Shown: positions 49,999 to 57,397 of the stretch, piece after piece
Layout of the letters: the number at the start of each line of letters is the position of its first letter
Position numbering within the stretch: position 1 is the stretch's first letter
NCBI GenBank assembly: GCA_963761305.1
Contig: CAVXGK010000001.1
Span: 224,001-288,000 of the forward strand
Length of the DNA stretch: 64,000 nucleotides
Direction: 5' to 3'
From: an uncultured Gemmatimonadaceae bacterium
GTDB lineage: Bacteria > Gemmatimonadota > Gemmatimonadetes > Gemmatimonadales > Gemmatimonadaceae
The notes under the pieces: generated by a model
What the model saw: only the letters and a program-made list of their open reading frames with translations
Told to the model about the DNA's origin: nothing
Database searches by the model: none
Position numbers and translations under genes: made by a program

Positions 49999-50110
49999 CG
50001 TCGAGGAATCTAGGCTCGACGGCGGATCGAAACGACACACCTGAAACCCGATCGAATCCGCTCCGTACTGCCGCGAGAGGCAGGTCGCGCTCACTCTCAC
50101 CGGGACCGAC

Positions 50111-52531
50111 ATGCAATCGCTGCTTCGCGACGTTCGCTACGGCCTTCGATCCCTATTGAAGGCGCCTGGTCTCACGGCCGTCGCGGTTCTCGCGCTGACG
50201 CTCGGGATCGGACTCACGACGACGATGTTCAGCATCGTGTACGGGGCGCTCCTCAAAGGGCTGCCCTTTCCCGACAGCGACCGCATCGTGGCCGTCTTCC
50301 GCTCCAATCCGTCGCGCAACATTCAGCAGTCGTCGATCTCCATCCTCGACTATTTCGACTACAGCGCGCAGCAGAAGTCCTTCGCCGAGCTGGCGGGGTT
50401 CACGTCGGGGACGATCTTCGTGAGCGGCGACGAGAAAGCCGAGCGATTCGACGGCTCGTGGATCACGGCGAACGCGCTGTCGATGCTCGGCGTGAAGCCC
50501 ATCCTCGGCCGGAACTTCACCCCGGGCGAGGACACGCCGCAGGGCGCCAAGGTCGCGATTCTATCATATACGATGTGGCACGACCGGTACGCGTCGGACG
50601 CGAACATCGTCGGCCGCGTGATCCGCGTGAACGGCGTGCCGACGGCGGTCGTCGGCGTGATGCCGGAGCGTTTCGAGTTTCCTCAGAACGACAAGATCTG
50701 GCTGCCGCTCCAGACGGATCCCAGCGCGACGAAGCGCGCCGACAGCCCGCAGATTCAAGTCGTGGGCAAGCTCAAGCCCGGCGCGTCATTCGACCAGGCG
50801 AACGTCGAGCTGGCGACGATCGCCAAGCGGCTGGCCGCCGCGTATCCCGACGCCGACGAAGGATTCACCACCAACGCGCGTCCCTTCGTCGACACGTACA
50901 TCGGCCCGCAGCCGCGGCAACTCCTGTTCACGATGCTCGGCGCTGTGTTCTTCGTGCTGCTCATCGCCTGCGCCAACGTCGCCAACCTGCTGCTCGATCG
51001 CGCGGCGCATCGCACCAAGGAAGTCGGCGTCCGCGTCGCGCTCGGCGCATCGCGCGGAGCCGTGGTGCGACAATTCCTGGCCGAGTCGCTGGTGTTGTCG
51101 CTGGCGGCGACGGTGCTCGGGATCGTGGTGGCGCATTTTGGGGTGGAGGCGTTCAACCGCGCGCTCGCGATCACACAGGTCCCGTTCTTCATCGACATTC
51201 GGCTGCATCCGCAGGTGCTGTTGTTCACGATCGCCGTCGCCGGCGTCACGACGCTCGTCGCCGGGGCGATCCCGGCGTATCAGTCGTCGCGCGCCGACAT
51301 CAACGAGATTCTCAAGGACGACTCGCGCGGCGCGTCGAGCTTCCGCATCGGCCGCATCACCAAGGGGCTCGTGATCTTCGAGATCGCCCTCTCGTGCGGG
51401 CTGCTCGTGGCGGCGGGCCTCATGATCAAGAGCGTCGCGAAGCTGCGCAATCTCGACCCGGGCTTCACGACGAAAGACGTGTTCACGGCGCGCATCGGCT
51501 TCCCCGTCGCGTACACGGACACGATCGCCCAATGGCGCTTCTTCGACGACGCGCTCCTCAAGGTGAGCGGGATTCCCGGCGTCGTGTCGGCGTCGGTCAG
51601 CTCGGGCATCCCCGCCACGCGCCAAGGGTTCGGCAGCAACACCTTCGGCGTCGAAGGCCAGAGCTATCTCAAGGACAAGGACTACCCGAACGCGCGCTGG
51701 CTCTCGGTGACGCCGGATTTCTTCACCACGCTCAAGACGCCGGTGGTGAACGGACGCGCGTTCACGCTCGGCGACCGTGCCGGCGAGCTGCCGGTGGCGA
51801 TCGTCAATCGCGAATTCGTCGCCAAATTCCTCGAGCACCAGAATCCGATCGGCAAGCGCATTCGGATTGGTGACTCGCGGAGCAAGCAGCCGTACCTCAC
51901 GATCGTCGGGGTCGTCGGCGACATGTTCTCGGGTGACAACGAGCACCCGATCGTGCCGGCGATCTTCCAGCCGTTCGCGCAGTCACGCGTCAACTTCGCG
52001 TGGATCTCGGCGCGCACCTCGGGTCCGCCGACGTCGATCACCGCGTCGGTGCGTCAGGCCGTGTCGTCGGTGAACGCCGACATCCCCCTCTACTGGGTGG
52101 ACTCGCTCGACAACCAGATCGCGCAGCAGACATGGTTCGTGCGCGTGTTCGGCACGATGTTCATGATCTTCGGCTTCGTCGCGCTGTTCCTGGCGTCGGT
52201 CGGGCTGTACGCGGTGATGTCGTTCTCGGTGAGCCGGCGCATCCGCGAAGTCGGGATTCGCATGGCGCTCGGCGCGCGCGCGGCCGACGTCGTCCGCATG
52301 ATCTTTGGCCAGGGGCTCGTCCAGCTCGGCGTCGGCATGACGCTCGGTCTGCTGCTGGCGGCCGGCATCGGTCAGACGCTCAAGATCATCCTCTTCCAGG
52401 TTCAGCCGCGCGATCCGACGATCTTCGTCGGCGTGGTGGTCGTCCTGACGCTGGTAGGTCTGGTCGCCTGCCTGGTTCCAGCGCGTCGAGCGACGCGGGT
52501 GGACCCGCTCGTGGCGCTGCGGGCCCAGTGA
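50111..52531 (+). CDS. ABC transporter permease, duplicated MacB/FtsX (ADOP-type)
   Basis: 'DVRYGLRSLLKAPG', 'LLIACANVANLLL', two FtsX domains, 'PARRATRVDP'. Confidence 0.92.
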   Translation: MQSLLRDVRYGLRSLLKAPGLTAVAVLALTLGIGLTTTMFSIVYGALLKGLPFPDSDRIVAVFRSNPSRNIQQSSISILDYFDYSAQQKSFAELAGFTSGTIFVSGDEKAERFDGSWITANALSMLGVKPILGRNFTPGEDTPQGAKVAILSYTMWHDRYASDANIVGRVIRVNGVPTAVVGVMPERFEFPQNDKIWLPLQTDPSATKRADSPQIQVVGKLKPGASFDQANVELATIAKRLAAAYPDADEGFTTNARPFVDTYIGPQPRQLLFTMLGAVFFVLLIACANVANLLLDRAAHRTKEVGVRVALGASRGAVVRQFLAESLVLSLAATVLGIVVAHFGVEAFNRALAITQVPFFIDIRLHPQVLLFTIAVAGVTTLVAGAIPAYQSSRADINEILKDDSRGASSFRIGRITKGLVIFEIALSCGLLVAAGLMIKSVAKLRNLDPGFTTKDVFTARIGFPVAYTDTIAQWRFFDDALLKVSGIPGVVSASVSSGIPATRQGFGSNTFGVEGQSYLKDKDYPNARWLSVTPDFFTTLKTPVVNGRAFTLGDRAGELPVAIVNREFVAKFLEHQNPIGKRIRIGDSRSKQPYLTIVGVVGDMFSGDNEHPIVPAIFQPFAQSRVNFAWISARTSGPPTSITASVRQAVSSVNADIPLYWVDSLDNQIAQQTWFVRVFGTMFMIFGFVALFLASVGLYAVMSFSVSRRIREVGIRMALGARAADVVRMIFGQGLVQLGVGMTLGLLLAAGIGQTLKIILFQVQPRDPTIFVGVVVVLTLVGLVACLVPARRATRVDPLVALRAQ

Positions 52532-52548
52532 ACCCCGGTGAAGCGGCG

Positions 52549-52577
52549 TTGACGGTGCGTGTGACGGTATCTAGCTT
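52549..52577 (+). promoter_or_regulatory. Sigma-70-type promoter for the leader-tRNA-Asn transcript
   Basis: TTGACG (52549-54), 17-nt spacer, TAGCTT (52572-77); predicted start about 52583-52585. Confidence 0.75.
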
Positions 52578-52584
52578 GCTTCCC

Positions 52585-52650
52585 ATGACGAACTGCGTGC
52601 TCAACCGAAATTGCGGGAATAATCGGAGCTCCTCGCGGAAAGCTGGCTAG
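52585..52650 (+). CDS. Putative Asn-rich leader (attenuator) peptide MTNCVLNRNCGNNRSSSRKAG
   Basis: ATG 7 nt after the -10 box (leaderless, no SD); Asn at codons 3, 7, 9, 12, 13; stop codon overlaps the putative antiterminator strand. Confidence 0.65.
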   Translation: MTNCVLNRNCGNNRSSSRKAG

Positions 52651-52677
52651 GGCGCACTCGGCAGTTTGTCAGGGACG

Positions 52678-52714
52678 AGGCCCGCCAGAAGTCATACGGT
52701 GGGCCTTTTGTTTT
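52678..52714 (+). terminator. Intrinsic terminator (attenuator) upstream of tRNA-Asn
   Basis: AGGCCCGCC-agaagtcatac-GGTGGGCCT followed by TTTGTTTT, ending 23 nt before the tRNA. Confidence 0.75.
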
Positions 52715-52737
52715 GGCAGGTTGGTCGAGGGAAGCAT

Positions 52738-52810
52738 TGGGGCGTAGGTCAATTGGCAGACCGCCTGACTGTTAATCAGGAAGTTGGTGGTTCGAGTCCA
52801 CCCGCCCCAG
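52738..52810 (+). tRNA. tRNA-Asn (GTT); CCA not encoded
   Basis: Acceptor TGGGGCG/CGCCCCA + G73; D arm GGTC/GACC; anticodon arm CCTGA-ctGTTaa-TCAGG; T arm GGTGG-TTCGAGT-CCACC. Confidence 0.97.
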
Positions 52811-52847
52811 TATCAGCAAGACCAACAATCTGAGAACGTTACGGACT

Positions 52848-52879
52848 AGCCCCGGCGCGCTTCAGCGCCGGGGCTTTGT
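52848..52879 (+). terminator. Terminator downstream of tRNA-Asn
   Basis: AGCCCCGGCGC-gcttca-GCGCCGGGGCT followed by TTGT. Confidence 0.7.
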
Positions 52880-52974
52880 CGTTGAATCCCGTTGCGGAGG
52901 TCAGCCTCGATGAAGCCACCTCGAGTGCGTGTTACCCAACGCGTAACAATTGTGAAGCAAACCACGAGTCGGTG

Positions 52975-53390
52975 CGATTCACCAGTAGAGGGGCTCGTCT
53001 CACCAATTCCCGCGCCCTGATTCAGCCGGTCAAATCGTCCACCTCAGACCGTTGCCGTTCTATCCAATCGCCGAAACGTCGAATCAATCATCCTGAACGT
53101 CGCATTCACACGCCGCACTGTGGAATCTCTCGCTCTTCCCACGCCATCTATGCGTGTTCCCGCGACACCAACCATTGCTCCGCTCGTACCTCGCACCTCG
53201 CCCCCGAGATCTCTCGCTGTTCCCGTCACGCCACACGTCGTTCCCGTGGCATTACACATCGTTCCCGCAGCATTACACATCGTTCCCGCCGCATTACCCG
53301 TCGTTCCCGTCGAAGCTCACGCCGCGGACATGGCGCCTCACCGCGTTCCCCTCGCTTCTCATGACGTTTCCACGCCATCACAAGGAGATA
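52975..53390. repeat. Degenerate 21-bp-period tandem array
   Basis: GTTCCC-like cores at 53135, 53156, 53219, 53240, 53261, 53282, 53303, 53345, 53366 (all multiples of 21 apart); best-conserved unit CGTTCCCG(T/C)NGCATTACACAT. Confidence 0.8.
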
Positions 53391-53629
53391 CCACACCATT
53401 TCCACATGATTCGCTCGCATTGCAGCTCGTGACGCTCGCTTCAACCAAGGCGAACGTCGCTGCAACAAGTCCGACGATCACCCCACGCGATGCGCCGCGC
53501 ATCGCTACGGACTCGAACGGGACTTCTCACCTTCGAACCCTCATTCCAACAGGTTTAGACGCGGCGTCAACAACACTTTTCCACGGGATCAACGCTGTTC
53601 ACCCATTCATTTCATTCCAAGGAGCACAT

Positions 53630-54421
53630 TTGAAAAACACGCAGGAGCAGGTTTACAACACGGGTCGTCGCGTCCAGGCTTTCCTCGACGCCAACGACTC
53701 GCTCTTCGGTAGCATCAACAAATCCAGCATACGGTCTGAGCTCGACACCGTCGTGACCGAGCTGGGTGCCGCCGCCGGCGATCAGGCCGGCGGGTTGGTC
53801 AACGCGCGTGGCGAGACGGCCAAACAACGGACTCTTCGTCTCGCGCTGCGGCTCAACCACATGCAGCCAATCGCTTCCGTCGCCAAGCTCAAGTTGCGGA
53901 CCGTCCCCAACTTCGAGTCTCTGACGATGCCTAGCGTCAACGTCCGCGTCGCCGGTTTGATCGCGCACGCGCTGGGTATGGCCGACGCTGCGCAGCCCTA
54001 TGTACAGGTATTCATCGACGCTGGTCTGCCGTCGGACTTCATGACGGCGCTGACCGCCGCGGCGGCGGCCGTCCAAGCGTCCGTCGACACCCGCGCAAAG
54101 TCACTCGGCAAAAGGGCCAACGCCACCGGTTCGCTCAAGGAGCTCGATCGCCGAGCGCGAACGGTCTACAAAGCGCTCAACGACTTCGTCGTCCCGATTC
54201 TCTCGGCCGACGTCGCGCACAGCGGATTGCTGGCCGAGTGGAAGACGACGCGCCGCGTCACGCTGCGCCCGGGCCCGACGATCGGAGTTGAACAGCTGGT
54301 GCGGGCGCTCGGTGGGGTGCCCATGCCATCGACATCCACATCGCCGACCACGCGGTCAGCGCCGGCTGTCGTTCCGCCGCCGGTTGCTCACCCGGTCGCG
54401 CCCCAGCTGACGACGCCGTAG
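53630..54421 (+). CDS. Hypothetical all-helical protein with Pro/Thr-rich tail
   Basis: AAGGAG RBS at 53619-53624 then TTG at 53630; coding-like GC3 pattern from here on; no recognised motif. Confidence 0.7.
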   Translation: MKNTQEQVYNTGRRVQAFLDANDSLFGSINKSSIRSELDTVVTELGAAAGDQAGGLVNARGETAKQRTLRLALRLNHMQPIASVAKLKLRTVPNFESLTMPSVNVRVAGLIAHALGMADAAQPYVQVFIDAGLPSDFMTALTAAAAAVQASVDTRAKSLGKRANATGSLKELDRRARTVYKALNDFVVPILSADVAHSGLLAEWKTTRRVTLRPGPTIGVEQLVRALGGVPMPSTSTSPTTRSAPAVVPPPVAHPVAPQLTTP

Positions 54422-54447
54422 GGTCGGCAAGACGTAGCACCTGATTC

Positions 54448-54480
54448 CGTGCGAGCGGTACGCGCGCTACCGCTCGCACG
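54448..54480. other. Perfect 13-bp hairpin after the hypothetical gene
   Basis: CGTGCGAGCGGTA-cgcgcgc-TACCGCTCGCACG. Confidence 0.7.
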
Positions 54481-54489
54481 ACGGAAGGA

Positions 54490-54532
54490 CCAGCAGTCGT
54501 ACGGTGGGCCTTTTGTTTAGGTCGGTTGTTCG
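54490..54532 (+). repeat. Degenerate copy of the tRNA-Asn leader terminator region (52685-52727)
   Basis: CCAGcAGTCgTACGGTGGGCCTTTTGTTT vs CCAGaAGTCaTACGGTGGGCCTTTTGTTT (27/29), weaker similarity beyond. Confidence 0.85.
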
Positions 54533-54607
54533 GAGCGGCAACATCGGTCGGCCAGAGACTCTCTGTCGGCCCTTCTTGTCCTTTGCGCAGACTACATAAA
54601 GTGTGAT

Positions 54608-55084
54608 ATGTTCTCGATCATGCGAACCCTGTCGCCGCTCTTCGTCCTGGCCGGTCTCGCCGGCTGCGGGCAGCACGGTGCCTCGGCCCCCACTCCCCAA
54701 GCGTCGCGAGTGGGGATCTATCACTTCACCGAGCATCCTCTTCAATCGAACCAGTCGTTTGAGGGCCGCGTCGGCGTGACGAAGGACACGATTGTCATTG
54801 AATCCGACTTGGCTCCTTGCATCTACGATTCGCGAAGCGCCGCCGGCTCCGCGGTCATCTATCAATGTGGACCGGTGACCGTGTCGTTCAGGCGATCAGA
54901 CCCTATCGCTACCGCCAGGTACACCGTCACTACGACGGTCGTGGACCACCAGATGACGTGCGTGCGATACACGACCGATGCGTCGGGACACCAGACCTGC
55001 GCCCAGCAGCGGAGCGAAGCGATCGAGCGACAGGTTCCAGTGTCGGGAACGTTGCATCTCGAGCTCACGGTCAAGCCCGACTGA
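54608..55084 (+). CDS. Hypothetical lipoprotein (paralog A)
   Basis: Lipobox 'LAGC'; four further Cys; clear paralog of 56927-57397. Confidence 0.8.
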   Translation: MFSIMRTLSPLFVLAGLAGCGQHGASAPTPQASRVGIYHFTEHPLQSNQSFEGRVGVTKDTIVIESDLAPCIYDSRSAAGSAVIYQCGPVTVSFRRSDPIATARYTVTTTVVDHQMTCVRYTTDASGHQTCAQQRSEAIERQVPVSGTLHLELTVKPD

Positions 55085-55186
55085 CGACGAGGCGCCGTCG
55101 GCGCGCGATGGCGCGTAGATTCGCGCGCGGGGATTGCCGGACTCGAATTCAGCCACGGATAGGCTGGTCCAGCGCGGGGGAGCGGC

Positions 55187-55711
55187 GTGCCCGATTCGAG
55201 AAACACGAAACTGCTCGTGGTCAGCCTCCTCGCGGTTCTGTGCGTCCAATTCGGTGTCGCGTACTACTGGAGCGAGCCCTACCCGGCGGTGATCATGCCG
55301 GGCTTCGTCGGGAGTCTCACGACCACCGGCATGACGACCATTCGCGGCTATCGCGTGGTTGCATCACGATCGTCCGGTTCCGACGTAGTTCTGGACGCCG
55401 ACAAGTTCTTCAAAGGCGTTCCGCATTGGTATCTGCTGACTGACATGCCGTTCGTGCTCGACACGACCCCTCCCGCGCCTTCGGGATGGCCTCGTCTTCG
55501 CGCGCGATTCGGGCGTCGCTCGAAGCTTCGGTCGGACGCCGGCACGCCGGCGTTCGTAGCCTACGCGCAGCGGCGCCTGGCGGAGCTGACCGATCGCTCT
55601 GACTGGGAGAGCCTCCGCATCGAGGAGACGAGCCGCGATCTCGACATCGACCAGATGAGCTACGTCGGGCCCGCCCGCGTCGATCGCAGCCGGGAGTTTC
55701 GTCTCCGGTGA
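55187..55711 (+). CDS. Hypothetical membrane-anchored protein, partner of the HTTM gene
   Basis: N-terminal TM then 'EPYPAVIMPGF'; stop overlaps the next start. Confidence 0.7.
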   Translation: MPDSRNTKLLVVSLLAVLCVQFGVAYYWSEPYPAVIMPGFVGSLTTTGMTTIRGYRVVASRSSGSDVVLDADKFFKGVPHWYLLTDMPFVLDTTPPAPSGWPRLRARFGRRSKLRSDAGTPAFVAYAQRRLAELTDRSDWESLRIEETSRDLDIDQMSYVGPARVDRSREFRLR

Positions 55712-56856
55712 TGACTGGTGCTCCCTCCGTTCCATTGGATCGACCCCAATCCTGGTTGGACCGCGAGTACCGCGTCGGCGACGAACAACTTGGATTCATC
55801 CGCGTCCTGTACTGCGCGTTCGTGCTGTTCGTGATCGGCCTTCCCTCCGTCACATGGACCGCCGACAGCCCGCAGCTCTTGTTCGATCCGCCGTTCCTCA
55901 GCGCCGCCAACCTCCTCTCGGGTTGGCCCTCGTCCGGAACGCTGTGGATCCTGAGCCTGGTGCTGGTGATTCTTTTCCTGCTGTTGTTGTTCGGGTTCTT
56001 CGTGCCGACGGTGTCCGTGTTGGCGTCACTGTTGATGATCGCCGGCTCGAATCTTCAGTTCTCATACGGGAAGATCGATCACAACAACATCCTTCTCGTC
56101 CTGACGCCGTTGATCATGGCTCGTTCGGGATGGGGCAACCGGTACACGCTCGGTCAGTCGCCGCCGACGCCAAATCGGTCGGGCGCTTGTATCGGCGTGC
56201 TATCCATCGTCGTCGGTTTTGCGATGTTTACGGCTGGATTCCAGAAGCTGGCCACCGGTTGGCTCGACATCCGGACCCAGGCGAGTTACGGCCATTTCAT
56301 TCACGATTTCTATTCGGATTCGCGTCAGGCGCTTCTCGCTCCGATCGCGATACACGTCCGGTCCAAAGCGTTCTGGGAGGGCCTCGACTATTCGACGGTC
56401 GGCTTCGAGCTGTTGTTCATCGTCGCCGTGATTCGACGGTGGTTGTTTCGAGCCTGGATTGGGCTCGCGGTCCTCTTTCACGCCGGCGTTCTCCTGATAC
56501 TCAACATCGGATTTTCCGTAAACTTTGCCGTGTATCTGTTCTTCGTCGACTGGCCGTTGCCGCGCCAATTCGCGCTGTCGGGGAGAATGGCGCGGCTTCT
56601 CGCGGCCGGCATTTCGGCGCTCGTGCTGACGGTTTGGTGGATGAGCGTTGGACCGGACCAGCCGCTGTTCTTGCGGATGTCGCCATCGCTTGCGAAGTAC
56701 GTCGTCTCGCGCCTTGTCGCGCCAGCCAACATAAACGACACGACGCTGGAGATCTTGCCGACCTTCCTCGCCATTGTGGCCGGGGTGGCGCTGATCGTTC
56801 GGCGTACAACAGCGTCCTCGAAACTGGGCGCGTTGGAGACTGTCGACACCGCGTGA
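55708..56856 (+). CDS. HTTM-domain (VKGC/SdpB-like) polytopic membrane protein
   Basis: Multiple TMs, 'SYGKIDH', 'MFTAGFQKL..GW', 'FELLF', 'LFHAGVLLILNIGF'. Confidence 0.7.
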   Translation: MMTGAPSVPLDRPQSWLDREYRVGDEQLGFIRVLYCAFVLFVIGLPSVTWTADSPQLLFDPPFLSAANLLSGWPSSGTLWILSLVLVILFLLLLFGFFVPTVSVLASLLMIAGSNLQFSYGKIDHNNILLVLTPLIMARSGWGNRYTLGQSPPTPNRSGACIGVLSIVVGFAMFTAGFQKLATGWLDIRTQASYGHFIHDFYSDSRQALLAPIAIHVRSKAFWEGLDYSTVGFELLFIVAVIRRWLFRAWIGLAVLFHAGVLLILNIGFSVNFAVYLFFVDWPLPRQFALSGRMARLLAAGISALVLTVWWMSVGPDQPLFLRMSPSLAKYVVSRLVAPANINDTTLEILPTFLAIVAGVALIVRRTTASSKLGALETVDTA

Positions 56857-56884
56857 TGGCGATCACGTGGGAGTCCCGGAGACT

Positions 56885-56928
56885 CTGACCGTTAGGCGGT
56901 GCTGGTTCGAGTCCACCCATTCCAGTAT
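56885..56928 (+). pseudogene. Degenerate tRNA-Asn fragment (anticodon arm to 3' end), att-like remnant
   Basis: TGGTTCGAGTCCACCC (56903-18) identical to tRNA 52788-52803; CCAGTAT matches the tRNA end and flank; CTGAcCGTTA resembles CTGACTGTTA. Confidence 0.8.
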
Positions 56929-57397
56929 GTTCTCGGCCATGCGAACCCTGCTGTCGCTGGTCTCGCTGGCCGGTCTCGCTGCGTGCGCACACCGTGGCGC
57001 GCCGGATCCCGCTCCCCAGACGTCGCGGGTAGGGATCTATCGCTTCACCGAGCATCCACCACAATCGAAACAGCCGTTTCAGGGCCGCGTTGGCGTGACG
57101 AACGACACAGTGGTCGTTGAAACCGAATCGGGTCCGTGCCTGTACGATCCCCACAGCCCCGCCGGTACCACGGTCATTTATCATTGCGGCGACATCACCG
57201 TGTCGTTCAACCGAACCAACCCCGTCCTCACTGCCAGGTACACCGTCAATACAACGGTGACTGACCAGCAGGCGACGTGCGCGCGACGCACGAGCGATTC
57301 ACGACAGACGTGCATCCAGCAGCGGAACGATCCGATCGAGCGGCAGGTTCCGGTCACGGGAACGCTTCACCTCGAGCTCGTCATAAAGCCGGACTGA
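56927..57397 (+). CDS. Hypothetical lipoprotein (paralog B)
   Basis: Lipobox 'LAAC'; shares 'SRVGIY.FTEHP', 'GRVGVT', 'TARYTV', 'IERQVPV.GTLHLEL..KPD' with paralog A. Confidence 0.8.
   Translation: MFSAMRTLLSLVSLAGLAACAHRGAPDPAPQTSRVGIYRFTEHPPQSKQPFQGRVGVTNDTVVVETESGPCLYDPHSPAGTTVIYHCGDITVSFNRTNPVLTARYTVNTTVTDQQATCARRTSDSRQTCIQQRNDPIERQVPVTGTLHLELVIKPD

Follow-up and report, generated by a model that had tools for sequence, protein, structure and literature searches.

Why does a chromosomal tRNA-Asn gene lie behind a short, asparagine-rich open reading frame and an intrinsic terminator? Attenuation is taught as a form of control over enzyme and synthetase genes, and a tRNA as its target would widen that rule. 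The locus lies in the window, a stretch of 64,000 nucleotides in which the first-pass annotation had proposed that a ribosome-dependent attenuator lets this tRNA regulate its own supply through the speed of Asn decoding. Two questions follow: whether such a switch operates, and what it would be for.

Organization of the locus

The first-pass annotation had described a promoter, an ATG at 52585 opening a 21-codon Asn-rich ORF, a GC-rich hairpin, a U-tract and a tRNA-Asn(GTT), and all of these were recovered at the same positions, as were both strands of a proposed antiterminator and of a proposed protector helix (Table 1). The ATG stands 7 nt past the -10 element, and transcription is predicted from this spacing to start there. 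Asn occupies codons 3, 7, 9, 12 and 13 of the leader ORF, the last two forming the presumed sensing doublet (52618-52623). The genome is 66% GC and Asn makes up 2.76% of its codons; five Asn among 12 leader codons gives a binomial p of ~1e-5, a post hoc figure for one locus. The short 1:2 hairpin begins at the last base of Asn13 and includes the 5' strand of the antiterminator.

Table 1. Features of the tRNA-Asn transcription unit (positions in the window)
Feature	Position	Strand	Details
Sigma-70-type promoter (predicted)	52549..52577	+	-35 TTGACG 52549-54, 17-nt spacer, -10 TAGCTT 52572-77
Leader ORF (predicted leaderless)	52585..52650	+	MTNCVLNRNCGNNRSSSRKAG, 21 codons, 5 Asn (3 AAT, 2 AAC); stop TAG 52648-50
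Outer protector helix (untranslated state)	52586..52671	+	52586-96 with 52661-71; MFE fold
Short hairpin, regions 1:2	52623..52646	+	Weak (-4.6 kcal/mol); RNAalifold consensus of 23 leaders
Antiterminator, regions 2:3	52643..52688	+	CTGGC-TA-GGGC 52643-53 with GCCCGCCAG 52680-88; spans stop codon
Intrinsic terminator, regions 3:4	52678..52714	+	GC-rich hairpin 52678-706, then U-tract TTTGTTTT
tRNA-Asn(GUU), type B isodecoder	52738..52810	+	U1-A72, G2-C71, G3-C70, G4-C69, A15:U48, 8-nt D-loop, G73
Second terminator, 3' of tRNA	52848..52885	+	Hairpin 52848-75

The leader terminator has a fold z of -2.98, with 2 of 200 shuffles equally good. A strict consensus scan listed neither the promoter, which has 8 of 12 matches, nor this terminator, whose 11-nt loop exceeds the 8-nt limit of the scan. 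A permease-like ORF ends upstream of the promoter at 52531, and the second terminator makes the tRNA the sole product of the transcription unit; hairpins 3' of the tRNA were seen by eye in many relatives. An Rfam search of 50000-56000 at E<=5 returned neither riboswitch nor T-box; the tRNA alone scored above the gathering threshold, and 52549-52736 was without any match.

A blastn search of the genome found no further copy of the leader, bar one partial terminator copy. The stretch 54490-54532 (+) repeats, with 86% identity, the 3' half of the leader terminator plus the bases after it. At 56897-56927 (+), ~4 kb downstream, lies a degenerate copy of the tRNA-Asn 3' end, which resembles the attachment site of an island that inserted at this tRNA. 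Each copy sits before one of two paralogous lipoprotein-like ORFs (54608-55084 and 56867-57397). Copies of the tRNA 3' half are also present 4-32 kb behind the corresponding gene in G052, G061 and G106 (G000 is the genome of the window; other G and L numbers denote genomes and loci of relatives, f families and g genera).

The first-pass annotation had suggested extending the comparison to all tRNA genes. In G000 this tRNA-Asn has a cognate leader with a terminator after it, and the other 50 of its 51 tRNA genes lack such a pair. Genome-wide, 13 short ATG ORFs contain at least 5 Asn, and this leader alone passed the promoter pattern, while failing the narrow U-tract pattern of the same scan. 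Two other promoter-linked leaderless leaders with terminators were noted, one Tyr-rich (C1:600025, minus strand), followed by an ORF that resembles a DAHP synthase, and one rich in Cys and Met (C2:2970802, minus strand). With these two, leaderless attenuation looks like local practice.

Conservation of the leader in Gemmatimonadota

The lineage is Gemmatimonadota: among 80 titled records matching the pattern of type B, the tRNA type of this locus (described below), 71 carry that label. Upstream regions of type-B genes were taken from 151 genomes, and a leader was called where an ATG or GTG ORF of 15-36 codons with at least 3 Asn ended 30-260 nt before the tRNA. This rule called 62 of the 151 regions, as against a mean of 1.8 and a maximum of 5 in 200 shuffles, and the Asn-rich micro-ORF, conservation of which the first-pass annotation had named as a check, is therefore conserved. 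Three calls that had no promoter and were not leader-like (G312, G256 and G110) were dropped before the folding counts as likely chance. The 59 leaders retained span 18 genera in three families (f1, f2 and f7) of the phylum. The window's own genus had 22 of 25 regions called, G000 among them, and all 22 contain TTGAC-N16-18-TA..T with an ATG 6-10 nt downstream, start sites being predicted. G007 has a leader that has lost its stop and G002 one with an early stop; G018 and G023 have lost the ORF.

The sequence of the leader peptide drifts, and its Asn content, length and start and stop positions are kept: 51 of 59 leaders are 19-23 codons long, and the genus alignment contains triplet indels and exchanges of AAT for AAC. 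When a promoter was required and the rule was run for each amino acid, Asn gave 53 calls, and Asp, Gln, His, Tyr, Lys, Trp, Phe and Cys gave 0-7. Calls were also made for Arg (57), Ala (30), Ser (27), Gly (16) and Pro (15), largely in the same ORFs and in line with expectation for GC-rich DNA. A separate promoter serving the tRNA downstream of the terminator would bypass the leader, and no promoter-like site was found between the leader stop and the tRNA in any of the 59. A separate collection scan, which overlaps the 151-genome set, called a leader at 23 of 115 usable loci. The switch is patchy in distribution, given that 89 of the 151 type-B genes have no leader call, many of them standing directly behind a promoter.

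The choice of codons bears on what the leader might sense. It could respond to tRNA modification (queuosine 34, t6A37) or to general elongation stress through AAU, Arg and Ser codons. Among the 304 Asn codons of the 62 called leaders, 179 (59%) are AAT, versus 20% genome-wide, tgt is present in G000, and Arg contributes 17% of leader residues, next to 22.7% for Asn, all of which would suit such a sensor. However, AAC still provides 41% of the Asn codons, the other amino acids of the queuosine family are rare in the leaders (Asp 1.6%, His 1.3%, Tyr 0.2%), and Arg, Gly and Ser are concentrated where the GC-rich strands pair; moreover, fresh unmodified tRNA would not cure a shortage of modification. 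Modification sensing is thus highly improbable, and the decoding of Asn is the signal we prefer.

Several relatives depart from the common arrangement. L353, titled Zixiibacteriota, is a type-B-like tRNA-Asn outside the phylum, where an Asn-rich short ORF ends 40 nt before the tRNA and a clear terminator between the two is absent. L062 (G074), L115 (G166) and L024 (G018) look like decaying attenuators that retain their hairpins but no longer have the Asn codons or the start codon. The leaders of L085 and L086 (genus g20) have 34 codons, are also rich in Asp and Lys and possibly act as a broader sensor. L048, L072, L089 and L256 (g18, g24 and g34) are leaderless type-B genes that have in common a hairpin, GAATCCC...GGGATT, directly 5' of the tRNA.

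Folding of the leader RNA

A terminator was found in 56 of the 59 leaders; G239, G071 and G289 were without a terminator call and stand outside the folding and shuffle counts. As the first-pass annotation had recommended, transcripts were folded under constraints set by ribosome position, here up to the terminator loop with the ribosome-covered stretch forced unpaired. A ribosome placed on the last clustered Asn codon left the 5' arm of the terminator paired to upstream RNA (P>0.5) in 53 of 56 leaders; placed at the stop codon, it did so in 7 of 56. The corresponding values for G000 are 0.78 and 0.41. Larger masks trivially reduce pairing, and the control was therefore to shuffle the stretch between stall site and terminator; the antiterminator beat the shuffles at p<=0.05 in 36 of 56 leaders, with a median p of 0.025. 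Its 5' strand lies mostly at the stop codon or just 5' of it, and its strands are wholly different between genera (CTGGC/GCCAG in f1, GGGGGC/GCCCCC in g42, CGGGTC/GACCCG in g11). The G000 antiterminator alone is no better than shuffles (p = 0.24), so its support is taken from relatives; the antiterminator of the first-pass annotation is upheld across the group but not by this one sequence.

The 8 core pairs of the terminator are retained in 23 of 23 leaders. Covariation within the genus is thin, with 2 of 8 pairs changed on both sides, a level reached by 209 of 500 shuffles. When strands were swapped between leaders, the cognate ones paired better than foreign ones in only 66% of comparisons, a weak preference. 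The long protector helix was significant in G000 (p = 0.01) but reached p<=0.05 in 15 of 59 leaders, and the conserved alternative within the genus is the short 1:2 hairpin. This hairpin has 3 pairs with changes on both sides in the genus consensus of 23 leaders; it is a weak structure, significant by itself in 2 of 59.

When the full-length leader was folded at equilibrium, the terminator formed in every state, with a median P of 0.86 even with the ribosome at Asn, and the switch must therefore be kinetic. In the untranslated leader, before the 3' arm of the terminator is made, the antiterminator was favoured in 42 of 56. The dominance of the terminator at equilibrium would also suit a different reading, in which the 5' part forms a separate, self-terminating gene for a small RNA or a micropeptide and fixed, leaky read-through yields the tRNA. 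In G000 the region 52584-672 folds into one long stem, as such an RNA might. Against this, the long stem is not general and matches no Rfam family, what is conserved is Asn content, length and stop position rather than a peptide, and the antiterminator is retained across unrelated sequences. An independent gene is accordingly very unlikely.

Among 24 RNA runs, none contains more than 0.09 of the sampled words. The assembled contigs of four of them, which come from distant relatives, were uninformative: in X7, one 217-nt contig joins a relative's leader to its tRNA, but it may be DNA and is silent on ends and levels. Ribosome-mediated attenuation by the speed of Asn decoding, the central claim of the first-pass annotation, is well supported in silico by conservation and folding, and on these models a trp/his-type transcription attenuator very probably controls this tRNA-Asn.

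Two tRNA-Asn isodecoders

G000 contains two divergent tRNA-Asn(GTT) genes, types A and B, type B being the one behind the leader. The possibility that the leader-controlled gene is the sole tRNA-Asn was rejected, as 77 of 80 genomes have at least two pattern matches, a few by chance. Type A (C2:1616429) has a UCC acceptor and G15:C48 and stands directly behind a promoter-like site with no leader. Neither its upstream region nor those of 29 type-A genes in other genomes, all genomes without type B, contained a promoter-linked Asn leader.

The type-B acceptor reads TGGGGCG/CGCCCCA versus GGGGGCG/CGCTCCC in the tRNA-Asp of the same genome, and all 46 tRNA-Asp matches, which come from 45 of 50 genomes of the phylum, start with GGG. 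All 94 distinct type-B sequences start with TGGGG and all 19 of type A with TCC, the two sets having been split on these first bases. Among the 94, A15:U48 is present in 81, a D-loop of 7-8 nt in 93, G73 in 93 and C38 in 4. The C38 sequences are L079, L082, L122 and L123, in which this tRNA-Asp determinant replaces A38. Type B differs from most tRNA-Asp at positions 5-6, and its A15:U48 and frequent U6-G67 wobble are unusual.

According to the accessible part of PMC9976931, Asp identity is determined by G73, the anticodon and C38, with G2-C71 as a minor element that is strictly conserved in bacterial tRNA-Asp. The same part names U1-A72 as the determinant of amidation, and the corresponding portion of PMC2330236 agrees. 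The Asn identity set given there, G34 U35 U36 A37 G73 (PMC9976931, in part), is kept by type B. U1-A72, the lack of an extra D-loop base and G73 are found in type B and in type A as well, and hence do not discriminate between them. Type B thus reads as a tRNA-Asn with Asp-like pairs 2-4 plus the mark for GatCAB. It was also considered as a Gln-like tRNA, which was rejected, the tRNA-Gln acceptors of G000 reading TGCCCC.

Association of type B with gatB

One draw of 301 genomes contained type B in 150, gatB in 224 (E<=1e-40) and both in 149. The sole exception, G063, has a gatB fragment, so that all 150 type-B genomes possess gatB sequence; in the other 76 gatB-negative genomes, type B was not found by pattern. 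Genera with neither occur in f1 (g25 and part of g12), f2 (g50, g52, g55, g61 and g72) and f7 (g81 and g92), and within f7 all 10 genomes of g80 have both type B and gatB, and no genome of g81 has either. These tallies include four genomes flagged as unpublished (G087, G208, G126 and G183), and the counts without them are 148 type B, 221 gatB and 147 both, of 297. Kin are not independent, so a Fisher p overstates the association and is not relied on, and tRNAs often go unassembled.

The link is one-way, as 75 of the 224 gatB-positive genomes are without the type-B pattern. Among 52 of these that were checked, 2 have a type-B variant and most others type A only. Another test, for glnS in 32 of them, found it in 12 and not in 20, and in these 20 GatCAB would be needed for Gln. 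Type B itself occurs both with and without glnS.

E. coli-type asnB scored above the cut-off in none of 35 genomes with type B, in 1 of 26 with gatB only and in 6 of 19 gatB-negative ones, a count that misses other AsnB subfamilies. An asnS match was present in 79 of 80 genomes, above the cut-off in 76. G000 has asnS, glnS, gatB and one AspRS. asnA is absent from it and was likewise not found in 5 gatB-negative genomes. Its asnB-like ORFs fall short of the E. coli-type model and most adjoin glycosyltransferase or NRPS-like ORFs; one such gene might make free Asn. The gatCAB genes sit behind serS and a UvrD-like gene, and gatA (C2:963330-964713, minus strand) breaks into two frames around model position 204, presumably by an assembly error or a strain lesion, being whole in 4 of 4 congeners.

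A His and a Gly are marks of a non-discriminating AspRS; the G000 enzyme has Leu at the His position, and these marks are absent from it and from most genomes examined, which is not decisive. An anticodon-loop residue of AspRS that would separate type-B genomes was sought and not found, the loop being RDLGG-like in nearly all groups (70 of 71 loci, from 80 matches with 10 left out).

The unusual features of type B could have a different meaning, namely that Asn shortage induces it to put a wrong amino acid (unamidated Asp, Gln or Glu) at Asn codons, or to donate Asp or Asn non-ribosomally. The odd pair and wobble noted above and the split gatA would be in keeping with this, and U1-A72, G2-C71, G3-C70, G73 and G10 fit the bacterial Gln identity set in the accessible part of PMC9976931. 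Set against these are the G000 tRNA-Gln acceptors, unlike type B, and the distribution of type B, which is found whether or not glnS is present but always together with gatB sequence; such a role is the most remote of the alternatives.

A proposed function in asparagine synthesis

In the model that we favour, transcription would begin at about the A of the ATG, as the conserved spacing indicates, and a ribosome would load on the leaderless ORF. When Asn-tRNA is ample, folding models predict that the ribosome reaches the TAG and covers 52643-62, the terminator forms and the RNA ends near 52712. When Asn-tRNA is scarce, the ribosome would stall at Asn12-13 and open the 1:2 hairpin, and the freed strand 2 would, kinetically, capture the 5' arm of the terminator, so that the type-B tRNA-Asn is transcribed. 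Judging from the sequence of type B and the co-occurring genes, the single AspRS may then charge it with Asp, which GatCAB would convert to Asn; Asn-tRNA would be made without free Asn and the switch shut again. The canonical type A would serve AsnRS.

The main rival accepts the same attenuator and makes type B merely a back-up tRNA for AsnRS, with slow decoding of Asn raising the supply of tRNA-Asn. All the evidence for the attenuator applies equally to it, type B keeps the full Asn identity set (PMC9976931, accessible part), and AspRS is without the His of non-discriminating enzymes. It leaves unexplained, however, the restriction of type B to gatB-bearing genomes, its tRNA-Asp-like acceptor and why Asn alone among 51 tRNA genes has such a leader, and extra uncharged tRNA would hardly relieve Asn starvation. 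We consider back-up supply unlikely.

An Asp-like acceptor found only with gatB fits control of Asn biosynthesis better than feedback on supply. The feedback proposed in the first-pass annotation therefore survives as control by Asn decoding speed, but its purpose is recast by the second isodecoder, the acceptor and the confinement to gatB genomes. As AspRS is single and gatCAB is common to Gln in relatives without GlnRS, no component of the route other than the tRNA could be placed under control of Asn alone. Given the attenuator, type B probably carries tRNA-dependent Asn synthesis, as its sequence suggests, and the account as a whole, attenuator plus dedicated Asn-biosynthesis tRNA, is somewhat favoured. 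Its most general form seems to us evenly poised between right and wrong: that a housekeeping isodecoder serves AsnRS, that the Asp-like acceptor of a biosynthetic isodecoder lets a discriminating AspRS and GatCAB make Asn, and that in many lineages the tRNA gene is the regulated Asn operon.

If this is true, Asn prototrophy in a group of Gemmatimonadota depends on one tRNA gene, the choice of route is encoded in the body of a tRNA, and transcription of one tRNA controls an amino-acid pathway. Of the two parts, the specialized tRNA would be the more surprising if confirmed.

Comparison with known systems

Classical leader-peptide attenuators include E. coli trpL, hisL, pheL, thrL and leuL and pheM-pheST. 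The present locus has in common with them (background in the accessible part of PMC4833913) a short ORF of cognate codons, 2:3 and 3:4 hairpins with a weak candidate for the 1:2 hairpin, an intrinsic terminator and, here by prediction, ribosome position as the signal. Unlike them, its product is a tRNA rather than an enzyme, transporter or synthetase, Asn is the amino acid sensed, the ORF is predicted to be leaderless and the stop codon lies within strand 2. The mechanism itself is familiar; the class of target is new. Saad and colleagues are said to have described, in 2012, redundant routes in which shortage of Asn-tRNA induces the indirect Asn route via a T-box riboswitch on enzyme genes. 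There the enzyme genes are controlled, whereas here a leader peptide controls the tRNA and no T-box was matched.

Mycobacterial attenuators with a leaderless polycysteine sORF (bioRxiv 10.1101/834739, accessible part) resemble the locus in placing a sensing ORF with a run of cognate codons at the 5' end of the transcript, here a predicted leaderless one. In the mycobacterial case, stalling frees the ribosome-binding site of a protein gene (same part of that source), whereas here the target is non-coding, so stalling must act on termination.

The open literature, as distinct from subscription literature, yielded neither a leader-peptide attenuator of a tRNA gene nor a route-specific tRNA-Asn isodecoder, and the accessible parts of PMC8007984 and PMC13174587 contain nothing on tRNA-gene attenuators or tRNA-Asn isodecoders. 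Leader-peptide control of a chromosomal tRNA gene, kept in three families of a single phylum, would widen the attenuation rule, and a specialized tRNA would suggest that synthetase discrimination is not readable from the enzyme alone.

Dual routes to Asn-tRNA are described in Bdellovibrio, Thermus, Deinococcus and S. aureus, and it has been argued that bacteria which possess AsnRS, GlnRS and GatCAB yet lack an Asn synthetase keep GatCAB for making Asn (PMC4206432, accessible part). The genome of the window has the same set, AsnRS and GatCAB (and GlnRS) with no clear Asn synthetase, as far as that part of PMC4206432 describes it. A pathway-specific isodecoder would answer the question, raised there, of how bacteria with AsnRS and GatCAB balance both routes to Asn-tRNA. 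The accessible part of PMC4206432 makes no mention of a specialized tRNA as a solution. The dual-route bacteria it covers relax or duplicate an enzyme (a non-discriminating AspRS or a second AspRS), whereas here it is the tRNA that appears to have been duplicated and specialized.
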